NCBI GenBank assembly: GCA_963816145.1
Contig: CAWFJP010000029.1
Span: forward strand, 96,001-160,000
Length of the DNA: 64,000 bases
Direction of reading: 5' to 3'
Source of the DNA: an uncultured delta proteobacterium
Lineage (GTDB): Bacteria > Desulfobacterota > Binatia > UBA9968
The notes beneath the pieces are model-generated. The model saw only the letters and a program-made list of their open reading frames with translations. It had not been told where the DNA came from and made no database searches. The stretch's first letter is position 1, and the number at the start of each line of letters is the position of its first letter. Made by a program: the position numbers and the translations under genes. Of the stretch, positions 4,326 through 20,920 are shown one piece after another.

Positions 4326-4341
4326 TCTTCGGGAGGAATGC

Positions 4342-5060: not shown

Positions 5061-5109
5061 ATCACCAAGAATAGTAACCTGCGCGGCGCAATTTCTTAGT
5101 TTTGCGAAA
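5061..5109. promoter_or_regulatory. Putative paired enhancer (UAS) palindromes for a sigma-54 activator
   Basis: TTTCTTA-GTTT-TGCGAAA at 5092 and weak ATCACCA-AGAA-TAGTAAC 31 bp upstream at 5061. Confidence 0.5.
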
Positions 5110-5158
5110 GTTTTTCCACGTTGGGGCGCACGTGCGGGCGCTTATATTCCTGTAACCG

Positions 5159-5174
5159 TGGCACCTCGCTTGCT
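5159..5174 (+). promoter_or_regulatory. Sigma-54 (-24/-12) promoter of CBS gene
   Basis: TGGCAC-CTCGC-TTGCT, full consensus. Confidence 0.8.
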
Positions 5175-5221
5175 GTTTTTTTATTGTAATTGTGGCCGTT
5201 GTGAGGGTCGTTAAAAACTAT

Positions 5222-5354
5222 GTAGTGGTTCAGTTAGACCGAGATCTCTCACTTCGTTCGAGATGACAAATCGACTTTTCTGCTGTCATTTCGAGCGCAG
5301 CGAGAAATCCTTCTCAGGGTGAAGACATGTGACCGTCTTGAACTGAACCATTAC
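5222..5354. mobile_element. Nested palindromic MITE-like element in the CBS gene leader
   Basis: Outer IR GTAGTGGTTCAGTT (5222-5235) / AACTGAACCATTAC (5341-5354), 13/14 match. Inner IR GAGATCTCTCACTTCGTTCGAGATGACA / TGTCATTTCGAGCGCAGCGAGAAATCC. Confidence 0.7.
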
Positions 5355-5370
5355 CTAAAACTATGGAGGA

Positions 5371-5820
5371 GTGCTTGTGAAGTCACCGAAGAAAATGCCT
5401 ATCGTTGGGGCGGTTATGACATCGTTTCCTTACTTTGTCGACAGCGCTGATCCGGTCGGCCGTCTTGAAAAGATGATGGATGATCGCGGCATCCGCCATC
5501 TGCCGGTTCAAGAAAAGGGCAAACTGGTCGGCATAGTCTCAGAGCGCGATTTGCACCATCGGCTGCCGCGCAGGGCGCCGCCGGAAGAGAAAGCGCGGCT
5601 GCGCGCTCGCGACATCATGGTGACAAACCCTTACGTCGTCGGTTTCAACACGCCGTTGAACGAAGTGGTGTCGCAAATCGCGAAGCGCCATATCGGTTCG
5701 GCGATCGTCACCCGCAAGGGCAAGCTCGCCGGCATCCTTTCAGCCATGGATGTCTGCCGCATTTTCGCCGAATATTTGGATAATCAATTCGGGGTTATTT
5801 CTGGTAGCGACGCGGCGTGA
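5371..5820 (+). CDS. CBS domain pair protein
   Basis: IRHLPV..GKLVGIVSERDL, RDIM, IGSAIV..GKLAGILS; RBS GGAGGA before GTG. Confidence 0.88.
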   Translation: MLVKSPKKMPIVGAVMTSFPYFVDSADPVGRLEKMMDDRGIRHLPVQEKGKLVGIVSERDLHHRLPRRAPPEEKARLRARDIMVTNPYVVGFNTPLNEVVSQIAKRHIGSAIVTRKGKLAGILSAMDVCRIFAEYLDNQFGVISGSDAA

Positions 5821-6206
5821 AGCTTTGACCACCGGGGCGGAGCGGATTTGTTTAGGTTGAGCGGAAAGCACAGGACCAGTGTCAATTAAATTGTTGGCCT
5901 GATCTCACTCGTTGGGATATTGGCGTGCAGGGGTTTCGCTTCCTGTTGCCCTCAAAGGTTCAAATCGCCGGCGCGCTGGTCATTTGCCGGCCATCTCGAT
6001 CGATTTCAGAGTGGTGCACTCGAAGGATATCTCGATTTGCAACGCAATGCGCTCGTCTGTGGAACGCGAGAAAGAGAAATTGAGCGCGTTCAAAATACCT
6101 TGGGACCTTGTGGGTTAACTGGCGTACCGGCAGGCCGAACCGCAGAGTATCGTCCAACGCTGCGACAACTTCCACATCATCTCGCGATCGAGCAGTTGGT
6201 AATTCG

Positions 6207-6488
6207 CTAAGGCTTAGTTGCGTGATACACGAAGTCGGGAAACAAACCAAAGAGGAAAATTAGCACGAAGGCCAATGGCACTAGAGCGATGGCGTAGATG
6301 AGGGTTTTTTCGTGTTTCAAATGCATGTAGTTGCGCGCGACCAACAGCGCTTTGATCACAGCGACGGTAAAGATCAGCATCAGCGCTTCGGCCTTCGGCA
6401 AGACGACGCTTGCGCCGACCGAGACGATGACGAGCGCCATCAGCCAGTACCAGATCACAAGAGTTTGACGGGTTTGGGCATTGCTCAT
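6207..6488 (-). CDS. Cytochrome c oxidase subunit IV family protein
   Basis: Three TM helices, KALLVARNYMHLKHE; last gene of the cox operon. Confidence 0.85.
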   Translation of the reverse strand: MSNAQTRQTLVIWYWLMALVIVSVGASVVLPKAEALMLIFTVAVIKALLVARNYMHLKHEKTLIYAIALVPLAFVLIFLFGLFPDFVYHATKP

Positions 6489-6500
6489 GTGGGTCTCCGA

Positions 6501-7076
6501 TCAAGCCAGATAGAGAAGTGGAAAGAGAAAGATCCAGACGATGTCGACAAAATGCCAGTACAAGCCAGCCAATTCGACTCGGTGGATGTGGTGCGCCAAG
6601 GTCCCCTTGGTGGCCTGGATCCACAGCACTAAGTTGATGATAATCCCGGCCACGACATGGAGGCCGTGCAATCCGGTCATGGCGTAATAAAATGACCAAA
6701 ACATCCCTGAGCTCGGTAAGAAGCCGTGGCTGATCTCGGTGCTGTACTCAAAAGCCTTCATACCGAGAAAACCGAGACCGAGCACGACCGTTAGACCTAA
6801 GAAATTAGCCGCGCGTTTGAAATCTCGATCTTGCGCCGCGCCATGGGCCATCACGACGGTCATGCTGCTGGTGAGCAAGATAAACGTATTGATGAGCGCA
6901 ATATTGAAGTTCAAATGGTGCGACGCTTCGGTCCAACCCGTGCTGCCGAGCCGCATCACGATGTAGGCAACCAAAATAGCGCCAAACGTCGGGATCTCCG
7001 AAGCAAGAAACCACCAAGTGCCGACTTTGCCGTAAGGCTCGGTCGGAATATCGAACGTCGTTGTGTTTGTCGTCAA
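6501..7076 (-). CDS. coxC: Cytochrome c oxidase subunit III
   Basis: WWFLASE, NTFILLTSS, TGLHGLHV, GLYWHFVDIVWIFLFPLLYL. Confidence 0.93.
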   Translation of the reverse strand: MTTNTTTFDIPTEPYGKVGTWWFLASEIPTFGAILVAYIVMRLGSTGWTEASHHLNFNIALINTFILLTSSMTVVMAHGAAQDRDFKRAANFLGLTVVLGLGFLGMKAFEYSTEISHGFLPSSGMFWSFYYAMTGLHGLHVVAGIIINLVLWIQATKGTLAHHIHRVELAGLYWHFVDIVWIFLFPLLYLA

Positions 7077-7134
7077 AGTCTATCCTCCCAAGGACGTTTG
7101 AAATGCGTATGCCATCGTTGCGGTCGGCCTTTGT

Positions 7135-8847
7135 TCAATGAAGCGCCGCTTTTGCGCCGTCTCCCACATCCAGATTCTGCGGTAACCAGTCTTCTTTTTG
7201 ACCCGGCAGGCTGTATTCGTAAGCCCCCCGATACACCACTGGTATCGCGTCGAAGTTCTCGTGCGGTGGTGGTGAGCTGGTGCTCCACTCCAAGGTGTTG
7301 GCCTGCCAAGGATTGGCCGGAGCTACTTTACCGGCGAACAGGCTCCAGAAGAAATTGATAACAAAGACGATTTGCGAACAGATCAATAAGATCGCCATCA
7401 ACGTAATGAAGATGTTCAACGGTTCCACCGGTTTCAAAAAATCATACTGGGTCGGATTGGCGATGCGCCGCATCATTCCACCCAGGCCGACCAGATGCAT
7501 GGGACCGAAGATGAGATTGAAAAAGGCGAAGGTGAGCCAGAAGTGAATCTTGCCCAAAGTCTCGTTCATCATCCGGCCAAACATCTTGGGAAACCAGAAG
7601 TAAAGGGCGCCAAAGCCGGCGAAAAAAACATTGCTGATCAGCGTGTAATGAAAATGGGCGACGACAAAGTACGTGTCATGAATATAAATATCCACCGCCG
7701 CCGAACCGTTAAAAATTCCAGTCAGGCCGCCGAAGATGAAAACTCCCAAAGTGCCGATGGCGAAAAGCATCGGCGTGGTGAAGACCATCGAAGAACCCCA
7801 GAGCGTGGCGACGATCGAAAAAATGACCAAAGCGAAGGGCACAGAGATGATGATGGTCGTGATGCTGAAGGGCATCGCCAAGCGCGGGTCCATGCCGCTG
7901 ACGTACTGATGATGCGCCCAGACCAGGAAACTCAGGAATCCAGAAATGATCGAAGCGTAGATGATCGGCCGGTACGCGAATATCGGCTTGCGCGCAAACA
8001 CCGAGATGATTTCCAAAGTGATGCCCAAACCGGGAAGCAGGATGACGTAGACCTCGGGGTGGCCGAAGAACCAAAACAAATGTTGCCAAAGCAGCGGATC
8101 GCCGCCAGCGTCGGGAGCGTAAAATGTCGTGCCTAAGTTGCGATCCATCAGGAGCAAAATCGCGCCGGCGATTGTCGGTCCTACTGAAAGCATAAACACG
8201 ACCGCCGCGATCAATTGCATCCAGACGAGCATCGGCATGCGCATCAGGGTCATGCCGGGCGCGCGCATGTTAATGGCCGTCGTCAAAAAATTAATGCCGC
8301 CGAGCAAGAACGAGGCAAACTCCAGGGCGAGGGCGAGCAGCCAGAGATCCACGCCATAGCCGCCACCGGTATATTCATTCTTAGCCGACAGGGGAGGGTA
8401 GCCGGTCCAACCGGCGGCGGCGGCACCGCCAGGCACAAAAAACGACGTAAACAGCACCACCGAAGCTAGAGCGAAAATCCACACCGAGAGCATGTTCAGA
8501 CGCGGGAAAGCCATGTCGCGGGCACCGACCATTAGCGGCAGCAGAAAATTGCCAAAGGCGGCGAGCAGGAGCGGCATGGCAACAAAGAAAACCATGATCG
8601 TGCCATGCATGGTCACAAGCGTATTGTACACGTTGGGTTCGATATAGCCCCAACCGAAAGCTTCAGTGTCGGGATGGGCGATCTGCCAGCGAATTAAGTA
8701 CGCCGAGCCGGCACCCAAAAGCGCCCAAAATAACGACAGGCTCAAGTACTGCTTGGCGATGACCTTGTGATCGGTCGAGAAAACGTAGCGGCTGACGAAA
8801 CTTCGATTGTCACTATGGGAGTGGTGATCTGTCGCTATCTCATTCAC
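7135..8847 (-). CDS. coxA: Cytochrome c oxidase subunit I (A1-type)
   Basis: STDHK, TMHGTIM, FWFFGHPEVY, VWAHH, VVAHFHY, GMMRR. Probable GTG start at 8847 after GAGGT RBS (ORF-track start 9036 overlaps coxB). Confidence 0.95.
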   Translation of the reverse strand: MNEIATDHHSHSDNRSFVSRYVFSTDHKVIAKQYLSLSLFWALLGAGSAYLIRWQIAHPDTEAFGWGYIEPNVYNTLVTMHGTIMVFFVAMPLLLAAFGNFLLPLMVGARDMAFPRLNMLSVWIFALASVVLFTSFFVPGGAAAAGWTGYPPLSAKNEYTGGGYGVDLWLLALALEFASFLLGGINFLTTAINMRAPGMTLMRMPMLVWMQLIAAVVFMLSVGPTIAGAILLLMDRNLGTTFYAPDAGGDPLLWQHLFWFFGHPEVYVILLPGLGITLEIISVFARKPIFAYRPIIYASIISGFLSFLVWAHHQYVSGMDPRLAMPFSITTIIISVPFALVIFSIVATLWGSSMVFTTPMLFAIGTLGVFIFGGLTGIFNGSAAVDIYIHDTYFVVAHFHYTLISNVFFAGFGALYFWFPKMFGRMMNETLGKIHFWLTFAFFNLIFGPMHLVGLGGMMRRIANPTQYDFLKPVEPLNIFITLMAILLICSQIVFVINFFWSLFAGKVAPANPWQANTLEWSTSSPPPHENFDAIPVVYRGAYEYSLPGQKEDWLPQNLDVGDGAKAALH

Positions 8848-8882
8848 GTTTTTTACCTCTATGTCCTTCTTCAATATTTTAC

Positions 8883-9560
8883 CTAAGCTCCCGAACCGGT
8901 CGATTTTTCTTGATACCATTTCTGATACTCGTCCGGCGGGTGAACGACCAAGAGCCCCTTCATTCCTGAATGGCCGAAGCCGCAAAGTTCCGCACAGGGA
9001 ATCTCGAACTGCCCGATCTTGGTGGCCTCGAACCATACCGGAATACGTCGCCCCGGCATGGCGTCTTGCTTGAGGCGAAAATGCGGCAGAAAAAAGCTGT
9101 GGATCACATCCTTGGACATCAAGATGACCTGGATCGGTTTGCCGACCGGAACATGCAGTTCGTTGTCGGTCTTGATGTCGTCGTCCGTGTCAAACTTCCC
9201 ATCCGCTCCGGGGTAGACAAATTCCCAGTTGAACTGTTTGCCGATTCCGTGCACGACGAAATCGGTAGGCGGGCGTTGCAGTTTAACCTTGGCCCAGACG
9301 TCGGCACTGCGAATGTCAATGAATAAGTCGAGCACGACCACGATCGCCATCGGCACGAGAACCCAAGCCAGTTGCGCCCAGGTATCGCCCGCGGCGTAAA
9401 CTGCCTTCTGCCCGGGTTTGCGTCGATAACGAAAGACAAAGTAAAGAATCAGTCCTTCAGTGAGAAAAAACCAAATGGTGACGATGTAGAAAATGAACCA
9501 GAAGATGCCGTCTACATCGGCGCCGAAGGTCGAGACATTTTCAGGAAACCAGCTTTGCAT
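8883..9560 (-). CDS. coxB: Cytochrome c oxidase subunit II (CuA, no cytochrome c extension)
   Basis: Two TM helices, DVIHSF, CAELCGFGHSGM. Confidence 0.93.
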   Translation of the reverse strand: MQSWFPENVSTFGADVDGIFWFIFYIVTIWFFLTEGLILYFVFRYRRKPGQKAVYAAGDTWAQLAWVLVPMAIVVVLDLFIDIRSADVWAKVKLQRPPTDFVVHGIGKQFNWEFVYPGADGKFDTDDDIKTDNELHVPVGKPIQVILMSKDVIHSFFLPHFRLKQDAMPGRRIPVWFEATKIGQFEIPCAELCGFGHSGMKGLLVVHPPDEYQKWYQEKSTGSGA

Positions 9561-9707
9561 TCAAACCTCTCACTTTCCCGAAGTGTTTTTTGAATCGCGT
9601 TTAGTTAGAAATCGATCCCCAAATACGGCCGCACCGAGAAATGGTCCGCGCTGATTCGATTGAGCTCTTCACTGCAACATATCAATGCATTGTCCTTAGC
9701 TTGATGA

Positions 9708-9721
9708 TTGATTCACGTCAC
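9708..9721. promoter_or_regulatory. Possible FNR/CRP-family site upstream of cox operon
   Basis: TTGAT-TCAC-GTCAC; an extended -10-like TGaTATGTT lies on the minus strand at 9676-9684. Confidence 0.4.
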
Positions 9722-9752
9722 GCTGAGTTCAGCCATGAGATCCAAGCCATCT

Positions 9753-10799
9753 CTAAGCCGCGGCGCCTTCTTCGAGGTAAAGTCCGAAGGCGCGCAAAAC
9801 CGGCTCGTCATGCAGCGAGAATAAGATCGCTTCGTCCTGCGACGACGCGTTGGCGTGGCTGTGCCAGCTCCAGAGCGGCACAACGAAACTATCGCCTTGC
9901 TGCCATTCCAAGGTCGTGCCGTCGACCTTGGTCGTGCCGCGGCCGCGAAAAACATGGTAGATGCTGGTGCTGCGATGACGGTGACTTTGGGTCCGCTCGC
10001 CGGGCCGGAACATTTGGATGCGGCAGAGCAGCGTCGGGAAGGTCGGGCCGCCCGTCAAAGGGTCGACATAGTCCAAAGCGACGCCGTCGTAGGGATCGGG
10101 AACTTTCTCGGCGAGCTGTTGCAGGGCTGCGTAGGTATCCGACCAGCGGTAGTGTAACGGCGCAACCAACCGTTGCGCGGCTTGGCCGGCCGGGCGCATC
10201 ATGCCGTAGAGCGACGGATGGATTGTTCCTTCTTTAACTCGCAGCCGCTCTTCATGCCGGCGCTCGACGGAAACGACCTGCAATGCTTCGATCAACGGCA
10301 CATCGAGGCCATCGGCCCAGATCATCGCTTCGCTGCCTTGATTTTCATGCTCGTGCCAGGCCCACTGCGGTGTGCGGATCAAGTCGCCGGGCTGCATGAC
10401 CATTTTCTCGCCTTCGACATTGGTGAACGCCCCTTTGCCCTGGAGGACAAAGCGGAAGGCGGTCATGGTATGACGGTGCGCCGGCGCGACTTCTCCGGGT
10501 TGAATCAACTGAAAGCCGAATAGCATCGTGTGCGCGGTCAACTTCCGATCGTTAAGCCCGGGATTGACCAAACGGATATAGCGCCGTTCGGCGGTACCAG
10601 GGCCGATACCGATGATATCGCGCGCCCGTTGCAGCGAGTCGTAAACATCGGCCCATTTCCACAGATGGGGTTTGACTTTGGTTTTGGGCTCGCCGGTGCG
10701 ATCTTCGTTGCTCACGTTCCACAGGCCGGATAGCCACTTGGCATCCAGCGCACGGTCGAGATCTCGGCGAGCGTCCATCGCGGCCGCTTCTTGAGGCAT
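9753..10799 (-). CDS. Gentisate 1,2-dioxygenase-like bicupin ring-cleavage dioxygenase
   Basis: PHLWKW, AERR..LVNPGL, PGEVAPAHRH, TPQWAWHEH, DGLDVPL, second cupin HRH...VPLWSWHSH. Confidence 0.88.
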   Translation of the reverse strand: MPQEAAAMDARRDLDRALDAKWLSGLWNVSNEDRTGEPKTKVKPHLWKWADVYDSLQRARDIIGIGPGTAERRYIRLVNPGLNDRKLTAHTMLFGFQLIQPGEVAPAHRHTMTAFRFVLQGKGAFTNVEGEKMVMQPGDLIRTPQWAWHEHENQGSEAMIWADGLDVPLIEALQVVSVERRHEERLRVKEGTIHPSLYGMMRPAGQAAQRLVAPLHYRWSDTYAALQQLAEKVPDPYDGVALDYVDPLTGGPTFPTLLCRIQMFRPGERTQSHRHRSTSIYHVFRGRGTTKVDGTTLEWQQGDSFVVPLWSWHSHANASSQDEAILFSLHDEPVLRAFGLYLEEGAAA

Positions 10800-10896
10800 T
10801 GTGCGCTTCCTTTACACCAGCTGAAAAGTTGATACCTGCGAGCTTCACGGCGGCGCAATCGATGAACGCGTCGCCGTGAAGGCCTTGACGGAAAGG

Positions 10897-12012
10897 TTAG
10901 GCGTTGCCCGCGCCCGCCGACATCCAGTTGCCGCTCTTGAAGATTGGTGCCAAGATTTTGCGATCAGCCGGGCCCGGCAAGACCTCTTCGAGATGTTTCT
11001 TATACTCGGCCTCGGACAACGGATTGCCTTCGACGCTGAACATCTTGCCCTCGTAGTCGCCGATCTGGCGGTTAAACTTCATGTCCGGCGCCTGTAGTTT
11101 GGGGCTGCCTTCGGGAATCAGCCGATTCAATCCCTCGATGATTTCGCAGTCTTCTTTATAGTAAAGATTGCGCGCTTCCTCGTTCAAGCGGTCGAGATCT
11201 TTTGGCGGTTCCTTGGCGGTGGCTTCGTCGAACCGTCCCTTGAAACCCCAGCGATAGAAGCGAGCGGCGGCAGTCGAGTGATCTTTGCCGAACAGATCGT
11301 AGCCGGTTGAAAGCCACTTATTGAGGTATTTTTGCAGGATCGGGATCGGCACTTTGCCGGCTTTGACGATTCTCGACAGACCGGTCTGACCGGTGAACAA
11401 ATGAAAGGCTTCTTCTTTCAGCATCGGCCCCATGCTGCGCGACAACGGCGCGAAGCTCGAATGATGCAGCATCGTGAGTTGATACTTGCCATCCCGGTCG
11501 ATGAAGCAAGTGTAGGTGACGAAGTCGATGAAATCGTCAACGTTCCTATTGAAAGCGCCAAGCAGCCGGGAATTGTCATAAGCGTGGCGCTCGAGCAGCT
11601 TGCGCGCTTCGAGTTTGCCGGAATCGCCGAAATTGGAAATCAGCACATGGCACATCTGCCAGCCATGGCGCTGCTCTTCGCGCATGACCCGAATCAGACA
11701 CTGGCGATCGTAGTCGCTGGGCGCGCTGTTGATCAGTTTGCGCTGCTGTTCGGAAGAGCCGAATTCGGTATCGCCTTGATAGAAAATCAAATGCAGCAAG
11801 GAATCGCGCATGTCCTGCGTCGGCATGTCGAGGATCTTCTCGAACTTTTTGCGCCCTTTGAACTCGCCGAACTCGATGGTTGGACTGGTGCCCTCATCGT
11901 AGATCGCGTCGAACTTGTAATCCTTGACCAGCTCGGGATCGAAGCCGATATCCTTTTGCCACTTATAAAATAGGTCCTTCCAGTCATCGAAATTGGTGAT
12001 GCGCTCCGCCAT
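10897..12012 (-). CDS. BoxB/PaaA-family diiron aryl-CoA oxygenase (short form)
   Basis: QGDTEFGSSEQQ, APSDYD, EEQRH, RLLGAFN, DRDGKYQL, EEAFH diiron ligands as in BoxB. Confidence 0.85.
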   Translation of the reverse strand: MAERITNFDDWKDLFYKWQKDIGFDPELVKDYKFDAIYDEGTSPTIEFGEFKGRKKFEKILDMPTQDMRDSLLHLIFYQGDTEFGSSEQQRKLINSAPSDYDRQCLIRVMREEQRHGWQMCHVLISNFGDSGKLEARKLLERHAYDNSRLLGAFNRNVDDFIDFVTYTCFIDRDGKYQLTMLHHSSFAPLSRSMGPMLKEEAFHLFTGQTGLSRIVKAGKVPIPILQKYLNKWLSTGYDLFGKDHSTAAARFYRWGFKGRFDEATAKEPPKDLDRLNEEARNLYYKEDCEIIEGLNRLIPEGSPKLQAPDMKFNRQIGDYEGKMFSVEGNPLSEAEYKKHLEEVLPGPADRKILAPIFKSGNWMSAGAGNA

Positions 12013-12083
12013 GATTCCTCCTCAGTGAATTTTAGATTGTTTCGCACTGTAAAGGTGTGTCAGTGCAATTGTGCAGAACTCTT

Positions 12084-12099
12084 CGCAAGGCGGATGCCA
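12084..12099 (-). promoter_or_regulatory. Sigma-54 promoter of the boxB-like/dioxygenase unit
   Basis: Minus strand reads TGGCAT-CCGCC-TTGCG, ~70 bp upstream of the ATG at 12012. Confidence 0.8.
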
Positions 12100-12159
12100 G
12101 ATCTCAGCCTATGGGATCCCCCACAGTAATGGAGGTTTTTCGGACGCTCGTTCGGAAAA

Positions 12160-12208
12160 TTTCTTATCGATTGGAAACGGCGCGCAAATACTTCTCACAA
12201 TTAAGAAA
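12160..12208. promoter_or_regulatory. Paired enhancer (UAS) palindromes
   Basis: TTTCTTA-TCGA-TTGGAAA (12160) and CTTCTCA-CAAT-TAAGAAA (12191), offset 31 bp. Confidence 0.65.
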
Positions 12209-12351
12209 GCGTCATTTGTTTGCGCTACTGCCGCAACGCGCGACGTTGTCGCAGCGAATTGCAATTGGGACTGAGAGACTACGTGTCGAAGCCCTGCGCC
12301 GGGTATCGCCGACGCAAGGTGAATGGGGCGCTGGCTTCGACAAAGGCGATT

Positions 12352-12741
12352 CTAAAGATCGTAGATTGGCGTGTGAATCGCGACATGCTCGCCTTGAGCG
12401 ATGGCGCTGACGATGTCGGCGCGGCTGACGATGCCGACGATAGCGCCTTCCGTCATTACCGGAAGGCGCTTAATCGCGTGGGCGGTCATCAAGCGGGCGA
12501 TTTCCTCCACCGAGGTCTCTTCGCTTACACTGATGACGCTTTTGCTCATGATGGATTTGACGTCTTTGCCTTTCTTGCCGACGATATCGGCTTCGGAAAC
12601 GACGCCGACGATCTTGCCGTTCTTGCCGGCCACCGGCGCGCCGCTGATCTGATTCTTGATGAGAGTCATGGCTAGGTTTTTCACGCTCATGGTCGGGCTG
12701 ACGGTGATGATGTCTCGGGTCATGATATCTTTGGCGTTCAT
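12352..12741 (-). CDS. CBS domain pair protein
   Basis: AKDIMT, ISGAPV..GKIVGVVSEADI, IKRLPV..IVGIVSRADI. Confidence 0.9.
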   Translation of the reverse strand: MNAKDIMTRDIITVSPTMSVKNLAMTLIKNQISGAPVAGKNGKIVGVVSEADIVGKKGKDVKSIMSKSVISVSEETSVEEIARLMTAHAIKRLPVMTEGAIVGIVSRADIVSAIAQGEHVAIHTPIYDL

Positions 12742-12755
12742 GGTTTTGCTCCTTG

Positions 12756-13769
12756 TTAAAGTCCCTTAGTCACCATCAGTTTCGCCAAATCGGCGACCCG
12801 ACAGCTGTAACCCCATTCATTATCGTACCAACTTAGAACTTTGGCCATCTTACCTTCAAGGACCACGGTGGAAAGTCCGTCGACGATGGACGACACGGGA
12901 TTGCCGCGGAAATCGCTGGATACCAGCGGCTCGTCGCAAAAGGCGAGGATGCCGTTCATCTTGCCTTCGGCGCTTTCTTTTAGCGCTGCATTGATCGCTT
13001 CGACCGACGCGGCCTTTTTGAGATCGACGACTAGGTCGACCACGGAAACCGTTGAGGTCGGGACACGCAGAGAAAGGCCGTGCAGTTTGCCTTTTAATTC
13101 CGGCATGACCAAGCCGATGGCTTTGGCCGCTCCCGTGCTCGTCGGCACGATGTTCATCGCTGCGGCGCGGGCGCGGCGCAGGTCTTTGTGCATTAGGTCG
13201 AGTATTCTCTGGTCGTTGGTGTAAGCATGGATGGTGGTCATCAGCCCGCGCTCGATGCCGAAGGCGTCATGTAACACTTTTGCCACTGGCGCCAGACAAT
13301 TGGTCGTGCACGAAGCGTTGGAGACGATATGATGCTTGCGCGGATTGTAGGCGCCATCGTTCACCCCCAACACGAGCGTGATGTCTTCATTGGTCGCTGG
13401 TGCGGTGATGATGGCTTTCATGGCGCCGGCATCCAGATGAGCACGAACTTGCGCCCCGTCGGTGAAAACTCCGGTGGCTTCAATGACGATGTCGACGCCG
13501 AGCTGTTTCCACGGCAGGCGGGCGGGTTCTTTCTGACTGAGCACGGCGATCGACTGGCCGTCGATCTTCATGACGCCGTCACCGCTTTCGACTTTACCGG
13601 GGTAAATGCCGTAGGTCGTGTCGTAGCGAAACAAGTGGGCGTTGGTTTTCAAATCCGCCATGTCGTTGATCGCGACGACGGACAGTTCATTCTTACAGCG
13701 CTCGAGCAGGGTGCGCAGCACCAACCGGCCAATCCGGCCAAATCCATTGATTGCGACTTTGGTTGTCAT
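12756..13769 (-). CDS. gap: Type I glyceraldehyde-3-phosphate dehydrogenase
   Basis: [32 protein letters not shown]. Confidence 0.97.
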
Positions 13770-13780
13770 CGGTGCTCCTG

Positions 13781-15100
13781 TTAGTTACAGCCCCGTAAAT
13801 CGGTGGTCAAATATTGATAGCGGTCGCGAAACTGCTCCGCCGAGCAGAAATGCTGCCCCGATGTCGCGGCCTGGGCCAATTGCCGGAGCTTCTCGTCATC
13901 TCTAAAATCTTCTTTTTCCAGGCGGATCATGTATTCCCGCGCGACCCGGTACGACGGTGAATAAATGTCGACTGAACGAACCCGCGTTTTCCCGGTCTTA
14001 GGGTCGAGTAGACCGGGGAAGTCGAGGTATTCGAGTCGGCCATCGACCAGACAAACCAGGGCCCCGTCGAGCTTGGCTACGGCTGCGCTTGGGTTGAGCA
14101 GAAATTCCACAGCGCCGTATCCGAGCGTGCGGACATAGTCGCAATCGAAGGCGACCGGTGCCGCCGAGCGTAGCTCGTAGCCGATATTCTTGTGGATAAC
14201 CGCAGCGGTGGCGCCGCGGCTAACAAAACGGTGCTCGATAAGTGTTTTCAAAATATAAGCGAGGTCGACTTCGGCGAGGCGCAGGTGGCCGTAGCTATCG
14301 TGGACGATCTGCACACCGTCGATATTTTTGAGTTCGTCGATCGGCATATGCTCGAGCAATCCTTCGGCGATCACGGCGACGCCGTCCGACCGATTCCATA
14401 AAGCTTTGCGTTTGAGCATCGCGCCTTCGAGAATGTCGCACACGGTGGCAACGCGAATCGCTCCGGGAAACTCTTCCGGGATGAGTGTGACGGTGGCGCC
14501 GGTGGACTTGCCGATGCCGAGGGCGAGGTGACCCACTGAACGGCCCATCACGACGACGAAATACCAGCGGCCGGTGGTGCGCGAGTCTTCCATCAGATTT
14601 TGCACCAGATCGCTGCCCAGCTGGCGCGCGGTCTCAAAGCCAAAGGTTGGGGTCGCGCCCGGTAGTGGCAAATCGTTGTCGATGGTCTTGGGTACATGGC
14701 AAACCCGGATGCGACCCTGCGCCTCTCTGGCCACTTCGCTGGCCGCAAACATGGTATCGTCGCCCCCGATGGTTGCGAGATAGCCGACGCCGAGCCGGTC
14801 CAGGGTCTCGACGACATGTCGTAAATCGTTCGGCTTTTTCGTCGGATTGGCGCGCGAGGTATTCAAGATCGAACCGCCCTGGAAGTGGACCCTGGACACA
14901 TCGGCATGGTCCAGTTCGCGCACATGATTGGCGTCAGCCTGCATGAGCCAGTGAAAGCCTTCGTAGATGCCGATCACTTTGCGGGCGCGAGTGCGCGCTT
15001 CCAGCGTAATCGCGCTGATGACGCCGTTGATCCCGGGTGCCGGACCTCCGCCGACAAGAATTCCGAGATTAGTCTTGGAAGAGTGACTGTTGTTCGCCAT
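13781..15100 (-). CDS. pfp: Pyrophosphate-dependent phosphofructokinase
   Basis: [15 protein letters not shown] (Asp typical of PPi use), [17 protein letters not shown]. Probable start ATG 15100. Confidence 0.88.
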
Positions 15101-15181
15101 GATGATATCAAAATGTAGCGATTTCTGTGCCGGTGCAAGTCTCAATCAAGACTGGGTGAGCGGAGGTGATCAGGTTCATCA

Positions 15182-15230
15182 TTTCGCATATCTGCGAAAT
15201 TTTTTGCTTTTGATTCTTGGCAGCGCGAAC
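15182..15230. promoter_or_regulatory. Paired enhancer (UAS) palindromes
   Basis: Perfect TTTCGCA-TATC-TGCGAAA (15182) and ATTCTTG-GCAG-CGCGAAC (15213), offset 31 bp. Confidence 0.68.
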
Positions 15231-15278
15231 TTTTTGCGTCGCGGCTCATGCCGTACATGGATTCACGCAGCACTTTTG

Positions 15279-15294
15279 TGGCATAGACATTGCG
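15279..15294 (+). promoter_or_regulatory. Sigma-54 promoter of ferritin-like genes
   Basis: TGGCAT-AGACA-TTGCG. Confidence 0.8.
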
Positions 15295-15380
15295 CAAGCT
15301 AAAGTATAGATACGAGGATCGTTGTTACAGGAGTGGGGAATTAAACGCGTCGCGGGCAAGCTTAGGAAGGAGAAAAATTT

Positions 15381-15887
15381 ATGGAAGAGATCTCTGATGT
15401 CAATATGATGTTCGATTTGCTGAGGACTCCGGGACAGATTTCGCCGATTGAACGTTTGCTCAACGAGTTTGAAGCCCATGAAAATAAGGAGGAGAAAGCG
15501 CTCGAGTATTACAAGCAAGTGCTCGGTGAAATGCCCAACCCGGCGACTCGCTTTTTACTTCAGCTGATCATTTCAGATGAAGAGAAGCATCGTGCGGTGA
15601 TCCATGCGATGGTCGCAACCTTGAAAGGAAGCCTCACTTGGACCAAGCCGGCGGGCAGTTTAGAAGGGGGCGCTGACTCGGGGGCGGTAGACGGCAAACT
15701 ACTTGAAGTGACTGAAGAGTTTATCCGGATTGAAAAAGAGGGTATCAAGGATTACAAGACCTTGATTGGCGAGAGCGCTGATTACTATCACGGCCTATTC
15801 AAAGTCCTGATGGATTCGATGATTCGCGATTCGGAAAAGCATATCGAGCTGCTTGAATTTCTCAGAGGGAGTCTCAAAACCGCATGA
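15381..15887 (+). CDS. Ferritin-like (rubrerythrin-type four-helix) protein
   Basis: E..A..YY / DEEKH and E..GI..Y / DSEKH duplicated diiron-type motifs; RBS AAGGAG. Confidence 0.75.
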   Translation: MEEISDVNMMFDLLRTPGQISPIERLLNEFEAHENKEEKALEYYKQVLGEMPNPATRFLLQLIISDEEKHRAVIHAMVATLKGSLTWTKPAGSLEGGADSGAVDGKLLEVTEEFIRIEKEGIKDYKTLIGESADYYHGLFKVLMDSMIRDSEKHIELLEFLRGSLKTA

Positions 15888-16387
15888 TACCCGAAGAGCC
15901 GTTCGATTCTCTATTGGCCTTTGCCGAGATCGAACGGCTCGTTGCCAGGATTTACTTCCGTTTCTCGCATCTGTTTCTTGCCGATCCGGCGCTGCGCGAT
16001 TTCTGGTGGGAGATGGCCAGGGAGGAGGAGCAACATGCTTGCATTCTGCAGGCTTGCCGGGCGGTGATCGAAAACTATGAAGAGGAGCGCTTGGACCCAA
16101 CGGTCAGCCAAGACCGCGCCGACCGGCTGCGCCAATGGCTAGATGCCTTCCTCGCCCAGGGCACGGCGGCGTTGACCGTAGAAGAGTCGTTTCGGATCGC
16201 CCTTGAGATTGAAAGTTCAGAAATCGACGCGATCTATGGCAAACTGATTCATCTGGGCGGCGAACAGATCGCCCGGACCATGGAAAACTTGGGCGTGCCC
16301 GCCGCCATTCAAAGGCAGAAGTTGAAGTCCGCGCTGCGCCGCTTCTGCGATAATCCAGAGCTGCTTCAAGCGGCAGAAAGGCTATAA
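15884..16387 (+). CDS. Ferritin-like protein
   Basis: IERLVARIY, MAREEEQHA, ALEIESSE; ATGA overlap with the upstream gene. Confidence 0.7.
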   Translation: MIPEEPFDSLLAFAEIERLVARIYFRFSHLFLADPALRDFWWEMAREEEQHACILQACRAVIENYEEERLDPTVSQDRADRLRQWLDAFLAQGTAALTVEESFRIALEIESSEIDAIYGKLIHLGGEQIARTMENLGVPAAIQRQKLKSALRRFCDNPELLQAAERL

Positions 16388-16454
16388 GCAAGGCCATTGG
16401 CTTGCGCTTTAAATCGCCAAGGCTCGCCCTGTCCTGGGACGCCGCCAACTTTGT

Positions 16455-17399
<945 letters not shown>

Positions 17400-17448
17400 T
17401 TTCCTAGATTCTGCAATGGCTCTCCGCAAGGCTCCTATTCCTAGGAAG
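17400..17448. promoter_or_regulatory. Paired enhancer (UAS) palindromes
   Basis: TTTCCTA-GATT-CTGCAAT (17400) and GCTCCTA-TTCC-TAGGAAG (17431), offset 31 bp. Confidence 0.5.
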
Positions 17449-17511
17449 ATTTTTCTCCCGGGTCTAGCAAATTCATGTGAAATCCCGTGTCTGAGGGCGA
17501 TTTGGCTCGGC

Positions 17512-17527
17512 TGGTCTCATTCTTGCC
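17512..17527 (+). promoter_or_regulatory. Probable sigma-54 promoter
   Basis: TGGTCT-CATTC-TTGCC retains GG-N10-GC. Confidence 0.55.
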
Positions 17528-17584
17528 TTTTCTCAAGTTGAGGGAGTTCACGCTCGTTATGATTGTGACGGGTCCAAGTGAGTC

Positions 17585-19306
17585 ATGCCTGTCGTTGGTA
17601 CACGACTTCTGATCGACCTGCAGGCCAATTCTGTAAACTCCCGGCGACCCGTCGAAATAGCGGATCCAATCCTATGGGTCACACGGAGAGATATAGATAG
17701 TATGACGCATGGACGCGGCGGGGACGGCATGATGCCCGCTCCCGCGGAACTGGTTACAATGTCGGACGCCCAAGAGTCGCTCGTTCAAGCGATGCTCGAC
17801 CCGCAGTTCTATCCCAAACCGCCGGATACGGTGACCCATAAAGAGACCCATATCTCCCATCTTTTCTTCGCCGGAGAGCTGGTCTTCAAGTTGAAGAAAC
17901 CGGTGCGCTATTCGTTCCTCGATTATTCGACCCTTGAGAAACGGCGTGTCTACTATCAGGAAGAGCTGCGCCTCAACCGGCGTTTAGCTCCGTCGGTCTA
18001 CATCGGTGTCATGCCGATAACCTTTGACGATCTGGGCTGGCGGATCGGCGGTTGGGCCGAGCCGGCGGAGTATGTTCTGGTGATGCGTCGGCTGCCGGAA
18101 AAACGCATGCTGCCGTTTCTGCTCGACACCGGCCAGGTGACAGCGGCGATGATGCGCGAGCTGGCAGAGTTGCTGGCCCACTTCCACCAAGGCGCGGAGC
18201 GGGTCAGGGCTGTCGACCCTGCGCAATACCCGGCGCTGGTTCGGCGCCAATGGTGCGACAACATCGCCGATCTCAACCCCTTCTTGGGTAAAGCCATCGA
18301 CGTGGAAGACTTCCGCGCCGTCGACCAATTCGCCATGGGTTTCATTGAATCCCATGGCGAACTCTTTGCCCGGCGCGCCGCACAAGGTTGGCTGCGCGAC
18401 GTCCATGGGGATCTTCACGCCGAGCATGTCTGTTTCGCTCCAGAGGGGATTCAAGTTTTCGACTGTGTCGAGTTTGAGCCGAAGTTCCGCCGCTGCGATC
18501 TGGCCTCGGAAATCGCCTTCTTGGCGATGGATATTGAGGCGCGCGGTAATGGCGACTTGGTCGAGCCGTTTCTCAGGCGCTATGGTGAACTGCTCCAAGA
18601 CAACGATTTCAGAAAACTTTTGCCGTTTTGGAAATGTTACCGCGCGATGGTGCGCGCAAAAGTTTATGCGTTGCGCGGTAGCGCGGGCTTTGCCACCGCG
18701 CAGGGCTATCTGCGTTATGCGGCGAGGCTCACCTGGGAGCCGCTGCAGCCTTTTTTGATCCTGGTCAGTGGATTTAGCGGCAGCGGCAAGTCGACAGTGG
18801 CGAAAGCGCTAAGCGAACGACTCGGGGTCTCGAGTATCAATTCCGATGTAGTCCGTAAGGCCCTGGCGGGAAAAGTGGGGCGCCAGACTGAGGGATATCT
18901 TGAGGGGATTTATAGCGCGACCATGAGCGAGAAGACCTACGCAAAAATGGCGCGTGATAGCGAAAAGTTAATCGCCCGCGGCCAGGGTGTGATTTTGGAC
19001 GCGACTTTTACCCAGCGCGCCCAACGGCGGCGGATGGTTCGATTGGCGGCAAAACATCATGTGCCGATGTTGCTGATCCATTGTTCAGTTGCCGAGGAGA
19101 TAATTCACCAGCGTTTGATCCAACGAGCGGCCCAAGGGCTCGACGTGTCGGATGGTCGTTGGGAAATCTACCTCCACCAAAAGGACACCTTTGAAGCGCT
19201 TGACGAGGTTGATCCTGGAGCTTGTCTTGAGCTGCGCACGGACGCGGACGTCGACAGGTTAGCTGCCACCTGCGAAAAGTTCTTGCGCGAGCGAATCGTG
19301 CGGTAA
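17585..19306 (+). CDS. Bifunctional aminoglycoside-phosphotransferase-like / AAA_33 P-loop kinase protein (Rv2004c-like); true start may be downstream (~17730-17759)
   Basis: ETHIS, KLKKPV..FLDYST, ELRLNRRLAP, HGDLH, FDCVEF, then GFSGSGKST and ILDATF. Confidence 0.88.
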   Translation: MPVVGTRLLIDLQANSVNSRRPVEIADPILWVTRRDIDSMTHGRGGDGMMPAPAELVTMSDAQESLVQAMLDPQFYPKPPDTVTHKETHISHLFFAGELVFKLKKPVRYSFLDYSTLEKRRVYYQEELRLNRRLAPSVYIGVMPITFDDLGWRIGGWAEPAEYVLVMRRLPEKRMLPFLLDTGQVTAAMMRELAELLAHFHQGAERVRAVDPAQYPALVRRQWCDNIADLNPFLGKAIDVEDFRAVDQFAMGFIESHGELFARRAAQGWLRDVHGDLHAEHVCFAPEGIQVFDCVEFEPKFRRCDLASEIAFLAMDIEARGNGDLVEPFLRRYGELLQDNDFRKLLPFWKCYRAMVRAKVYALRGSAGFATAQGYLRYAARLTWEPLQPFLILVSGFSGSGKSTVAKALSERLGVSSINSDVVRKALAGKVGRQTEGYLEGIYSATMSEKTYAKMARDSEKLIARGQGVILDATFTQRAQRRRMVRLAAKHHVPMLLIHCSVAEEIIHQRLIQRAAQGLDVSDGRWEIYLHQKDTFEALDEVDPGACLELRTDADVDRLAATCEKFLRERIVR

Positions 19307-19353
19307 AGCGAGTTTAATAGGGTTTTGAGGGTTTTTGCTTGGGACACCGTTTA

Positions 19354-19402
19354 TTTTTCATTCCTGGGATTTCAGCCCTAATCTATTCTCATCGGTGACA
19401 AA
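19354..19402. promoter_or_regulatory. Paired enhancer (UAS) palindromes
   Basis: TTTTTCA-TTCC-TGGGATT (19354) and ATTCTCA-TCGG-TGACAAA (19385), offset 31 bp. Confidence 0.6.
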
Positions 19403-19439
19403 AAATATTCATTTAGCCTGGTAAGCCGACTTACATTGC

Positions 19440-19455
19440 TGGCATGCTAGTTGCG
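19440..19455 (+). promoter_or_regulatory. Sigma-54 promoter of USP genes
   Basis: TGGCAT-GCTAG-TTGCG. Confidence 0.8.
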
Positions 19456-19488: not shown

Positions 19489-20397
19489 ATGGGTATGTTT
19501 TCCAAGTTACTGATACCGCTGGATGGGTCCAAGACTGCCGAGAAGGTATTGCCATTTGCGCGTATCTTGGCCACGACATTCAAACTGCCCATTGAACTCT
19601 TGGAAGTCGTCGATATCGCTGCGGCGACGGCGCATATAGCTGCCGATAAGGCGCGTTATCTGGATCGGATCATCGCTGAGGGCGAAAGTGCGAGCCGCGA
19701 GCACTTGGACGAAATCGCCGCGACATTTACCGGTCTTAATGTCACTTGCAAGGTCGAGCGGGGCCGGCCCGCTGACCTGATCATCGAACGAGCTGAGGCG
19801 GAAAAGGGCACGTTGATCGCCATGGCTACCCATGGCCGCTCGGGAATTAACCGCTGGATGATGGGTAGTGTGGCAGAAAAAGTCCTGCGCGGCACGAAGG
19901 TGCCGTTATTCCTGGTGCGCGCTGGTGACGAGGCGGCGGTAGCCCGGACGGTCGATTTCAAGTCCATCGTGGTCCCGCTCGACGGTTCCGAGCTAGCGGC
20001 ATCGGTGTTGGTGACCGTCAGTGAAATCGCCAAAATGCTCGATATCGAGATCGTTCTCTGCCGCGCCTATGAACTCGCGGCGACGGCTTACTATGGCAGT
20101 GAAGACTATCTGCCCAAGTACGACGAAATGCTCCGTGAGCTAAAGGAAGACGTGGAAGACTATCTCAAGAAGAAAGTCGAGGGGTTGAAGGCCGGTGGCT
20201 TAGCCAAGGTGTCGTGGGTTGCGCTGGAAGGTTCCGGCGCTGAGGCGATTGTCCGCTACGCCAATGCGCGTCCTGATGTGCTCATCGCGATGTGCACCCA
20301 CGGCCGGTCCGGCGTGAGCCGTTGGACGCTTGGTAGCGTGACTGAGAAAGTAGTGCGCCACTCTGATGAACCGGTGCTGGTGTTGCATGCCGGTTGA
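19489..20397 (+). CDS. Tandem universal stress protein
   Basis: Two domains, each with PLDGS and THGRSG...GSV.EKV.R. Confidence 0.93.
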   Translation: MGMFSKLLIPLDGSKTAEKVLPFARILATTFKLPIELLEVVDIAAATAHIAADKARYLDRIIAEGESASREHLDEIAATFTGLNVTCKVERGRPADLIIERAEAEKGTLIAMATHGRSGINRWMMGSVAEKVLRGTKVPLFLVRAGDEAAVARTVDFKSIVVPLDGSELAASVLVTVSEIAKMLDIEIVLCRAYELAATAYYGSEDYLPKYDEMLRELKEDVEDYLKKKVEGLKAGGLAKVSWVALEGSGAEAIVRYANARPDVLIAMCTHGRSGVSRWTLGSVTEKVVRHSDEPVLVLHAG

Positions 20398-20449
20398 ACA
20401 GAGCCGGAGCCCAGGTGAGAGAAATAACGCCGCTCGCAAGGAGGTTTTT

Positions 20450-20920
20450 ATGAGCAAGATAAGAAAGATATTGGCACCGACTGATTACTCCGATTTGTCG
20501 ATCACCGGTTTACGGCATGCCTTCGAGGATGCCCACGAGACCGGCGCCGAGTTGATCGTGCTGCATGTCATTGACATGGGCGATGACTGGTTTGGTACAC
20601 CCAAGAATTTCGCGCCGGTGCGCACTTTGCTGGCTGAGCAGCAAGAGTTTCTCGATAAGTTTCTAAGAGAGAATTTCGCTGAGTTCATGAATGTGGTCGA
20701 AGTGCGTCAGAAAGTCGAACTGGGCACGGCCTACGCAAACATCGCCGCCATGGCCGAGCGCGAAGCCGTTGACGTTGTAATGATGTCGACCCATGGGCGC
20801 ACCGGGCTGGATCACGTCCTGCTCGGCAGCGTTACCGAGAAGGTGATTGCCCATGCGCATTGTCCGGTGCTGGCGATTCCGGCGCCGAAGCGGCACGACA
20901 CGGTGCCTAAGGCGGCGTGA
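20450..20920 (+). CDS. Universal stress protein
   Basis: KILAPTDYS, THGRTGLDHVLLGSVTEKVI..CPVL; ATG 20450 after AAGGAGG. Confidence 0.92.
   Translation: MSKIRKILAPTDYSDLSITGLRHAFEDAHETGAELIVLHVIDMGDDWFGTPKNFAPVRTLLAEQQEFLDKFLRENFAEFMNVVEVRQKVELGTAYANIAAMAEREAVDVVMMSTHGRTGLDHVLLGSVTEKVIAHAHCPVLAIPAPKRHDTVPKAA

Follow-up and report, generated by a model that had tools for sequence, protein, structure and literature searches.

At glnAp2, a -24/-12 (sigma-54) promoter, the active NtrC oligomer is nucleated on two upstream dimer sites that lie about three helical turns from each other, and it is established for NtrC and NifA that DNA-bound AAA+ activators need the correct face of the helix. Related enhancer-binding proteins (EBPs) can work in pairs on the same promoters, as HrpR and HrpS do, with HrpS checked by the small partner HrpV, and the psp system of Escherichia coli, under PspF and PspA, uses integration host factor (IHF). 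The DosR (DevR) regulon of Mycobacterium tuberculosis comprises universal stress proteins (USPs), the alpha-crystallin Hsp20, CBS-pair proteins, phosphofructokinase (PFK), ferredoxin-linked enzymes, a nitrite/formate-type transporter and a hibernation-factor-like protein. To our knowledge, most EBPs control one or a few operons. Here we analyzed a 64,000-nucleotide stretch of DNA from an uncultured bacterium (hereafter, the window; G000:C29:96001-160000), which carries a small EBP gene (16455..17399, plus strand; the local EBP) directly preceded by the gene for a putative, distantly ferritin-like protein, P0002. Judged from its sequence, the window appears to contribute four promoters, perhaps five, to a sigma-54 regulon that spans the genome, counts at least 46 promoters and is probably under the control of two related activators.

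The local EBP resembles PspF in consisting of only an AAA+ domain and a helix-turn-helix (HTH) domain, in the two upstream sites, and in that Walker A and the GAFTGA loop occupy identically numbered residues in both proteins; regulation in trans through a partner that the regulon itself encodes, as known for PspA, is predicted here from a structural model. However, the local EBP falls below the PspF equivalog cut-offs (253.2 vs 443.55 bits for TIGR02974; 216.5 vs 529 bits for NF008622), its gene lies itself inside a regulated operon, P0002 is not PspA-like (no Pfam family, a fold weakly and distantly like that of ferritins), and the two promoters of psp compare with dozens here, with no IHF consensus in the linkers between sites and promoters (0 of 46). 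The site spacing, 31 ± 1 bp, is comparable to that of NtrC sites at glnAp2, but the site sequence is different, the enhancers are nearer the promoter and step in quantized helical turns across the regulon, and two paralogous activators appear to share the code. In contrast to HrpR and HrpS, one paralogue is a phosphorylation-controlled response regulator (RR) and the other has no sensor domain, and either EBP alone co-occurs with the motif in some genomes. The target gene content is strikingly parallel to that of DosR, although the likeness is functional only: the regulators are not homologous, DosR being a NarL-type (NarL/LuxR) regulator at sigma-70-type promoters, whereas AAA+ EBPs at -24/-12 promoters are involved here.

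Three published studies bear on the same themes. RedR1/RedR2 are described as another case of paired paralogous EBPs (PMC10084136). A 2025 survey of Planctomycetia reports sigma-54 promoters enriched before UspA (COG0589) and CBS (COG0517) genes, tying the same kinds of target genes to sigma-54 in another, non-proteobacterial lineage, so that the sigma-54 stress theme may be wider than the lineage studied here; promoter enrichment is what is described there, and the passages concerned name no activator, enhancer motif or phasing (PMC12316311). In Desulfovibrio vulgaris, 4 of 37 EBPs have no N-terminal domains, and partner proteins or cascades were suggested for them; the regulons described in the passages on that organism are single operons or small sets, and the terms 'universal stress', 'CBS' and 'Hsp20' do not occur in the main text (PMC4641369). 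Our searches of the open-access literature returned no title or abstract describing this regulon or an EBP-partner pair of this kind, and no paper combining sigma-54, universal stress protein, enhancer binding protein and regulon. The building blocks (-24/-12 promoters, tandem enhancers, trans-controlled sensor-less EBPs and paired paralogous EBPs) are known, and what is new, so far as open-access searches reach, is the size and content of the regulon, helical quantization throughout a regulon lacking IHF sites, an enhancer code apparently common to an RR-type EBP and a sensor-less paralogue, each seemingly dispensable in some relatives, and a predicted ferritin-like partner family.

The assembly that contains the window comprises 7.82 Mb in 31 contigs with 56% G+C, encodes sigma-54 (rpoN; a PF04552 match of 212.6 bits at C11:303484-303957, within a 505-aa open frame) and yields 34 strong matches to the sigma-54 activator domain. 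The nearest public records with the local EBP are metagenome-assembled genomes of uncultured bacteria, whose labels conflict (Thermodesulfobacteriota, Candidatus Binatia, uncultured Syntrophobacter, delta proteobacterium); one unpublished genome (G005) underlies no claim. We scored palindromes in bits with a 22-bp position weight matrix (PWM) built from 31 promoter-linked seeds, and promoters by a 7-point match to the -24/-12 consensus TGGCAC-N5-TTGCW, a pair of sites being counted as linked when a promoter of at least 6/7 lay at 20-120 bp. A strict two-site pattern, with up to 3 mismatches allowed, was used alongside, the transcription start (+1) was placed 12 nt past the GC for position estimates, and open reading frames (ORFs) downstream of promoters were called with a simple heuristic.

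The pairing of the palindromes and its spacing are apparent genome-wide. With the consensus proposed in an earlier note on this DNA (TTTCNCA-N4-TGNGAAA) matched at 19/24 or better over all spacings from 18 to 59, we observed 12 pairs at 31, 7 at 30 and 3 at 32, and 0-2 pairs at each remaining spacing; because the consensus was the note's own, this peak is not circular. The strict pattern gave 15 matches at spacing 31 across the genome, 6 at spacing 30, 1 each at 32 and 41, and none at the other seven of the ten other spacings scored, and when read backwards it matched nowhere in 41 genomes. A looser core, TTTC-N10-GAAA with up to 1 mismatch, yielded no spacing peak and was abandoned, the inner CA/TG positions being needed. 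Within the window, the strict pattern matched 3 times, compared to 0.01 matches expected, and none of 100 dinucleotide shuffles reached 3, so that paired sites are far rarer in shuffled DNA of this composition than in the window itself.

The pairs are also linked to promoters. The PWM scan identified 68 clustered pairs at spacings of 30-32, of which 40 have a linked promoter on one or both sides, against 0.53 expected from the genome-wide promoter density, and 21 have a 7/7 promoter, against 0.08 expected. Six of the enhancers serve divergent promoters, which brings the total to 46, and 23 of the 107 genome-wide 7/7 promoter matches sit behind a pair. In its size, the regulon thus stands out: a single enhancer code would cover at least 46 promoters, or roughly one in five of the genome's best sigma-54 promoter matches. 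The local five-promoter regulon put forward in the earlier note therefore gives way to a much larger one spread over many contigs, while its picture of sigma-54 promoters with tandem upstream activator sites is borne out genome-wide by the promoter linkage and the spacing peak. Its spacing of exactly 31 bp proved to be the mode (28 of the 40 promoter-linked pairs) but not a rule, since 7 pairs are spaced by 30 and 5 by 32; its suggestion that promoter gaps advance in steps of a helical turn holds for the set of 46 promoters.

Distances between proximal site and promoter fall into classes of 28, 38, 48, 59, 69 and 78 bp, with a period of about 10.4 bp: 4 promoters lie at 28-29 bp, 14 at 37-40 bp, 8 at 47-50 bp, 12 at 59-62 bp, 4 at 67-70 bp and 2 at 77-79 bp, with one each at 53 and 95 bp. 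The Rayleigh R reached 0.71 at 10.25-10.5 bp (n=46), compared to a maximum of 0.50 in 5000 random sets, and the centers of the proximal sites come to lie near -63, -73, -83, -94, -104 and -113. Two sites three turns apart, placed whole turns from the promoter, are what the face-of-helix requirement of a DNA-bound AAA+ activator predicts, and the palindromes are in our assessment real enhancer sites of sigma-54 promoters, as read from this arrangement. The regulon as a whole offers a natural data set on short-range activation that needs the activator on the correct helix face.

Pfam scans of the 103 ORFs behind promoters outside the window, together with the window genes, revealed a range of targets. 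These include several USPs and at least 8 CBS-pair proteins; the chaperones and proteases Hsp20, DnaK, DnaJ, FtsH and HtrA; for translation and stringent-type control, a pair of DksA-like proteins, of which one carries a BON domain, and a fusion of a ribosome hibernation factor with a cold-shock domain; and, for oxidative stress, Dps (with KatG and FeoA) and OsmC. Energy and carbon metabolism is represented by two pyruvate:ferredoxin oxidoreductase (PFOR) units, malic enzyme with acyl-CoA synthetase, two glucan phosphorylases and the PntAB transhydrogenase, and further targets comprise 2-hydroxyacyl-CoA dehydratase and its activator, transporters of the formate/nitrite and TctCBA types, NAPRTase, PRPP synthetase and two BoxB/PaaA-like di-iron proteins; the window adds a terminal oxidase operon. 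In our reading, these genes make up a general program for stress, energy limitation or dormancy, one that gives a lead on the way in which abundant uncultured soil bacteria may become stress-tolerant or dormant. Contig C1 carries 17 of the 46 promoters and C2 carries 8, and these 25 are concentrated in C1:14-160 kb and C2:16-63 kb, which look like stress-gene islands.

The local EBP (314 aa) consists of an AAA+ sigma-54 interaction domain and a Fis-type HTH (PF00158, 4.1e-67; AAA_lid_14, 2.3e-26; HTH_8, 1.4e-10). The AAA+ domain starts at residue 8, leaving no N-terminal sensory or receiver domain, and the orthologues are equal in length; the L1 loop reads GSFTGA (residues 83-88, GAFTGA-type) and is invariant in 15 sequences. 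Besides the PspF models, a scan against NCBIfam found no other named EBP equivalog whose cut-off was reached. The EBP gene follows those for P0001 (15381..15887, plus strand; 168 aa, putatively ferritin/rubrerythrin-like, with two ExxH motifs and a weak Pfam Rubrerythrin/Ferritin match, E 0.0027) and P0002 (15884..16387, plus strand; 167 aa, all-helical), and this cassette is conserved. In 14 genome loci the EBP is at least 73% identical; each of these has P0002 directly upstream of the EBP and pairs with promoters in the same gap classes, and 10 also have P0001. We also retrieved 80 metagenome loci with P0002: among the 65 with sufficient DNA downstream, the EBP start lies within 300 bp of the P0002 homologue in 62 and at about 340 bp in the other three, P0001 is upstream of P0002 in 59 of 60, and a pair with a promoter precedes the cassette in 30 of 53, with a gap of 48-50 bp in 29 of those 30. 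The conservation of this autoregulatory arrangement argues that the local EBP uses the motif. More distant EBP homologues (at most 56% identity; 66 of the 80 genome loci) were dismissed as members of the system, being without P0001 and P0002 and, except at L057, without convincing PWM pairs. The only P0001 paralogue in the genome (37% identity; C11:246873-247346, minus strand) is itself a regulon member, located behind divergent promoters (C11:247464/247581) whose other side drives the 2-hydroxyacyl-CoA dehydratase operon.

A second candidate activator is encoded at C1:83001-84356, where a tblastn search located a paralogue that is 55% identical to the local EBP over 312 residues and has the architecture REC-AAA+-HTH (Response_reg, 4.9e-29; Sigma54_activat, 5.7e-69; HTH_8, 1.2e-10). 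Its neighbor is a PAS-PAS-HisKA-HATPase_c histidine kinase. Among all EBPs of the genome, the HTH of this RR-type EBP, LSLSTLYRKIEKLGVE, is by far the nearest to that of the local EBP, ISLSSLYRKIEELGIE, and the helix SLSSLYRKIE is invariant in 12 of 14 short-type orthologues, the final I being replaced by L in the other two (L051, L056). In three genomes, the intergenic region between kinase and regulator is occupied by a conserved TGGCCT-N5-TTGCT followed about 45 bp downstream by a site pair (G000:C1:84363-84478, equivalent to L124:6364-6478, minus strand; L215; L218). This pair ends about 10 bp ahead of the start codon of the regulator, inside the predicted leader, and would be an enhancer located downstream of its promoter; another pair with a promoter lies 3' of the paralogue gene.

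Both the motif and its units are kept in relatives. The strict motif is found in 23 of the 24 other genomes of the genus, compared to none of 11 in family f3 and none of 3 in genera g2 and g4, and it persists where one of the two activators is missing. The local EBP and P0002 were not found in G003 (88% complete, 40 contigs) and G004 (92% complete, 10 contigs), which carry an RR-type EBP of 95% and 61% identity and 7 and 3 strict matches, respectively. Conversely, the local EBP and P0002 are present and no RR-type orthologue was detected in G007 (98% complete), G021 (95%) and G012 (94%), with 3, 4 and 10 strict matches; there, the best match to the RR-type query is the short EBP itself. Two further genomes, G002 and G024, were discarded as carrying the paralogue only, since fragments of P0002 occur at their contig ends. 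At the syntenic locus of G003 (L220, G003:C3:28796-31842), a divergent PFK gene, a pair with the promoter TGGCACACTCATTGCG and the APH/AAA_33 gene follow one another, the three-gene cassette being cleanly missing; the RR-type EBP of G003 lies on the same contig, only about 20 kb away. From the persistence of the motif in genomes with only one EBP type, we infer that either paralogue can serve it and that the present genome uses both. Two paralogous activators with one DNA code, each apparently dispensable in some relatives, would also be of evolutionary interest.

These distributions bear directly on the simpler alternatives. The earlier note proposed one activator, with the local gene as the obvious candidate, and a strict version of this idea, in which only the local domain-less EBP binds the palindromes and the RR paralogue on C1 has other targets, gains from the conserved autoregulatory pair and promoter before the P0001-P0002-EBP operon and from the survival of the motif where only the local type is present. 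It is nevertheless too narrow, and we regard it as quite improbable: G003 and G004, without the local EBP and P0002, keep their 7 and 3 strict pairs, including the promoter of the cassette itself, and the paralogue has an almost identical recognition helix and its own conserved pair. The converse, that the RR-type EBP alone reads the enhancers and the local EBP is a passenger with another role or DNA target, would fit the persistence of the motif without the local EBP and the location of 17 of the 46 promoters on C1, around the paralogue. However, the three genomes without an RR-type orthologue retain their 3, 4 and 10 strict pairs, and the short-type HTH is conserved among 14 orthologues and matches that of the paralogue, which makes this arrangement unlikely.

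A different kind of alternative is that the palindromes are operators of a repressor or architectural factor that accompanies sigma-54 promoters, with the EBP acting from other sites or from solution. The assignment of the protein to the DNA comes from sequence comparison, and a few pairs are oddly placed, for example, 3' of the promoter, as such a factor would permit. We give this possibility very little credence in view of the strict helical phasing to the -24/-12 element, the tandem sites three turns apart that are typical of EBP enhancers such as those of NtrC, the conserved pairs adjoining both EBP genes, and the co-occurrence of the motif with this EBP clade across genomes.

P0002 is the candidate for the partner that restrains the local EBP. 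Its family comprises 1027 cluster representatives, labeled 'hypothetical' or 'rubrerythrin' in the source databases, and P0002 itself matched no family in Pfam or NCBIfam and no relative in a sequence search of the PDB. The alignment has E17, H29, E48, E49, H51, E110, E113, C58 and C155 as invariants, with a single ExxH, and the AlphaFold model is all-helical (pLDDT 83). Prediction of the complex with the EBP scored 0.84, compared to 0.57 for the best control, with at least 93% contact agreement between runs and a partner pLDDT of at least 74. This score passes the mark applied, to which solved complexes attained in 116 of 157 cases and mismatched pairs in 2 of 215; these counts are only rough because our own alignments were used. 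In the model, P0002 is predicted to bind the AAA+ domain across the GAFTGA (L1) loop, which touches sigma-54, and the lid, through residues 64-76, 79-80, 85-92, 95 and 219-257 of the EBP. In this prediction, a small partner resembling iron proteins seems to restrain the local EBP. If the complex model is right, P0002 would be an anti-activator in the manner of PspA derived from an unrelated fold, and the conserved carboxylate and histidine residues suggest a metal-linked signal; as a putatively ferritin-like protein with no family name, P0002 is a candidate for a new class of anti-activators.

Taken together, the explanation that we favor, with a probability of about 70%, is an enhancer-bearing regulon with two activators and gating by P0002. 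Motif statistics, promoter linkage, phasing, conservation and gene content are what the data show, whereas we infer which protein reads the enhancers, what P0002 does, what the signal is and in which order the cascade runs. Each enhancer would consist of two 18-bp palindromes (consensus TTTCGCA-N4-TGCGAAA) with starts 31 ± 1 bp apart, that is, three helical turns, which would let two activator dimers share one face of the DNA, and would be placed a whole number of turns upstream of a -24/-12 promoter. The sites would be read by a small EBP clade sharing the recognition helix SLS(S/T)LYRKIE, of which this genome has two members. The local EBP, presumably co-transcribed with the two putatively ferritin-like proteins from one of these promoters, would amplify itself, with P0002 acting as its anti-activator, possibly in response to metal, redox state or oxygen; the kinase/RR-EBP pathway and the P0002-gated local EBP would converge on the same enhancers, and jointly switch on the stress, energy-limitation or dormancy program. 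A more specific scenario, which we offer only tentatively and consider doubtful as a whole, is that this uncultured soil/sediment lineage has a sigma-54 dormancy or starvation program that is the counterpart of DosR, primed by the PAS-kinase/RR-EBP and amplified by the sensor-less paralogue, with P0002 as a di-metal, ferritin-like protein of a hitherto undescribed anti-activator family, masking the GAFTGA loop until an oxygen, redox or iron cue arrives, and with IHF-free enhancers that work only at whole turns.

Several observations weigh against the two-activator regulon with P0002 gating. About 20 of the 68 PWM pairs are expected to be background (about 7 per spacing elsewhere), 28 of the 68 have no promoter by our score, and the PWM counts at spacing 31 are partly circular because the matrix was trained on promoter-linked pairs. 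G016 (91% complete, about 710 contigs) has the local EBP at 85% identity and no strict match. G031 and G033, of another family in the same order, have 2 and 4 strict matches, for instance TTCTCAAATTTGAGAA pairs, and the SLS-LYRKIE helix was not found in any of the 7 EBP C-terminal ends reading to a stop among ten loci of five genomes from the neighboring families, G031, G033, G025, G029 and G026 (genera g5, g2 and g3). All statements that a gene is absent rest on incomplete assemblies, the best PDB matches of P0002 in Foldseek (ferritins, symerythrin and MJ0754) are weak (E at least 0.026, TM about 0.5), and one control of the complex prediction itself reached 0.57. One of the strict matches in G033, on C214, is followed about 700 bp further downstream by an unrelated EBP gene.

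Within the window, four of the five -24/-12 elements listed in the earlier note are near-consensus (7/7), at 5159, 12099 (minus strand), 15279 and 19440, and the fifth, at 17512, is weak; its gaps of 49, 60, 48, 63 and 37 bp from the proximal site are correct. Three of its five palindrome pairs stand, namely 12160/12191, 15182/15213 and 19354/19385, while 5061 turned out not to be a site and 17400/17431 is a weak pair. Co-regulation is accordingly well supported for the CBS, BoxB-like, ferritin-like/EBP and USP units and doubtful for the APH/AAA_33 unit as a separate promoter.

The unit of the cassette combines a palindrome, TTTCGCATATCTGCGAAA (15182-15199, plus strand), which is perfect, as the note had it, and proved to be the sole 12/12 consensus match in the genome, with a weak proximal site, ATTCTTGGCAGCGCGAAC (15213-15230); the pair is strong overall (PWM 21.5 distal, 6.2 proximal). 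The promoter TGGCATagacaTTGCG follows 48 bp past the proximal site (15279..15294, plus strand; 7/7); autoregulation appears to run through this promoter, which is conserved. At a distance of 49 bp from the 15182 site, a weak sigma-54-like element, CGGCACagaaaTCGCT (15132-15117, minus strand), faces the PFK-GAPDH genes; we did not adopt it as a divergent PFK promoter, the leader to the ATG at 15100 being 6 nt only.

On the minus strand, the sites TTTCTTAATTGTGAGAAG (12208-12191) and TTTCCAATCGATAAGAAA (12177-12160) start 31 bp apart (12160..12208) and form a strong pair (PWM 11.8 distal, 16.5 proximal), with the 7/7 promoter TGGCATccgccTTGCG (12084..12099, first base 12099) 60 bp past the proximal site. 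The likely operon behind it (6501..12012, minus strand), with an extent deduced from gene order alone, begins with a BoxB/PaaA-like di-iron protein (10897-12012) and continues with a bicupin (9753-10799) and cytochrome oxidase subunits II, I and III (6501-9560).

At the left end of the series, a single strong activator site, TTTCTTAGTTTTGCGAAA (5092..5109, plus strand; PWM 19.5), whose claimed partner at 5061-5078 (plus strand) scores -0.5, precedes the 7/7 promoter TGGCACctcgcTTGCT by 49 bp (5159..5174, plus strand; predicted +1 at about 5185). Its target is a CBS-pair protein of 149 aa (5371..5820, plus strand; PF00571, 1.2e-22), with a predicted leader of about 186 nt in between (5185-5370). 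The stretch just upstream, 3018-5046, encodes a peptidase S51 (cyanophycinase-type) and a protein like component B of glycine/sarcosine/betaine reductase, neither of which any site ties to the regulon.

The weak unit at 17400..17527 (plus strand) consists of the 17400/17431 pair, with PWM scores of 3.8 and 6.0 that are equaled or surpassed at 254 genome positions, and of the element TGGTCTcattcTTGCC (17512-17527; TGGTCT-N5-TTGCC), which retains GG-N10-GC and part of the flanks. In L051 and L056, a good pair and promoter lie directly 3' of the EBP stop codon, in the position of this unit, and in G003 the APH/AAA_33 gene is driven directly by a promoter of the 15279 type, so that the 17512 copy, weak in the window, is perhaps decayed. 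The unit may therefore be a decayed internal promoter, and the gene behind it (17585..19306, plus strand; a 573-aa protein with a C-terminal AAA_33 kinase domain, the APH-like N-terminal part being seen in the G003 homologue) is probably the last gene of the 15279 operon, mainly read through from there. Immediately 3' of the EBP stop codon begins an inverted repeat, TTCCTAG ... CTAGGAA (17401-17447), which overlaps with the weak pair and might represent either a decayed enhancer or an attenuator separating the EBP gene from the APH/AAA_33 gene.

Metatranscriptome contigs of relatives (4 runs, 93-99% alike) have adapter-bearing ends at 12057 and 17566, and one contig starts at 19482. Two of these ends fall 16 nt past the +1 predicted for the 12099 (minus strand) and 19440 promoters; we gave them no weight either way because contigs cannot show starts, strand or level. 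The last unit of the series comprises a strong pair, TTTTTCATTCCTGGGATT and ATTCTCATCGGTGACAAA, 31 bp apart (19354..19402, plus strand; PWM 13.1 distal, 17.4 proximal), and, 37 bp past the proximal site, the 7/7 promoter TGGCATgctagTTGCG (19440..19455, plus strand), followed by a tandem-USP protein (302 aa) and a USP protein (184 aa) at 19489..20920 (plus strand). In G003 (L224), a promoter identical to the one at 19440 is present with its own site pair.

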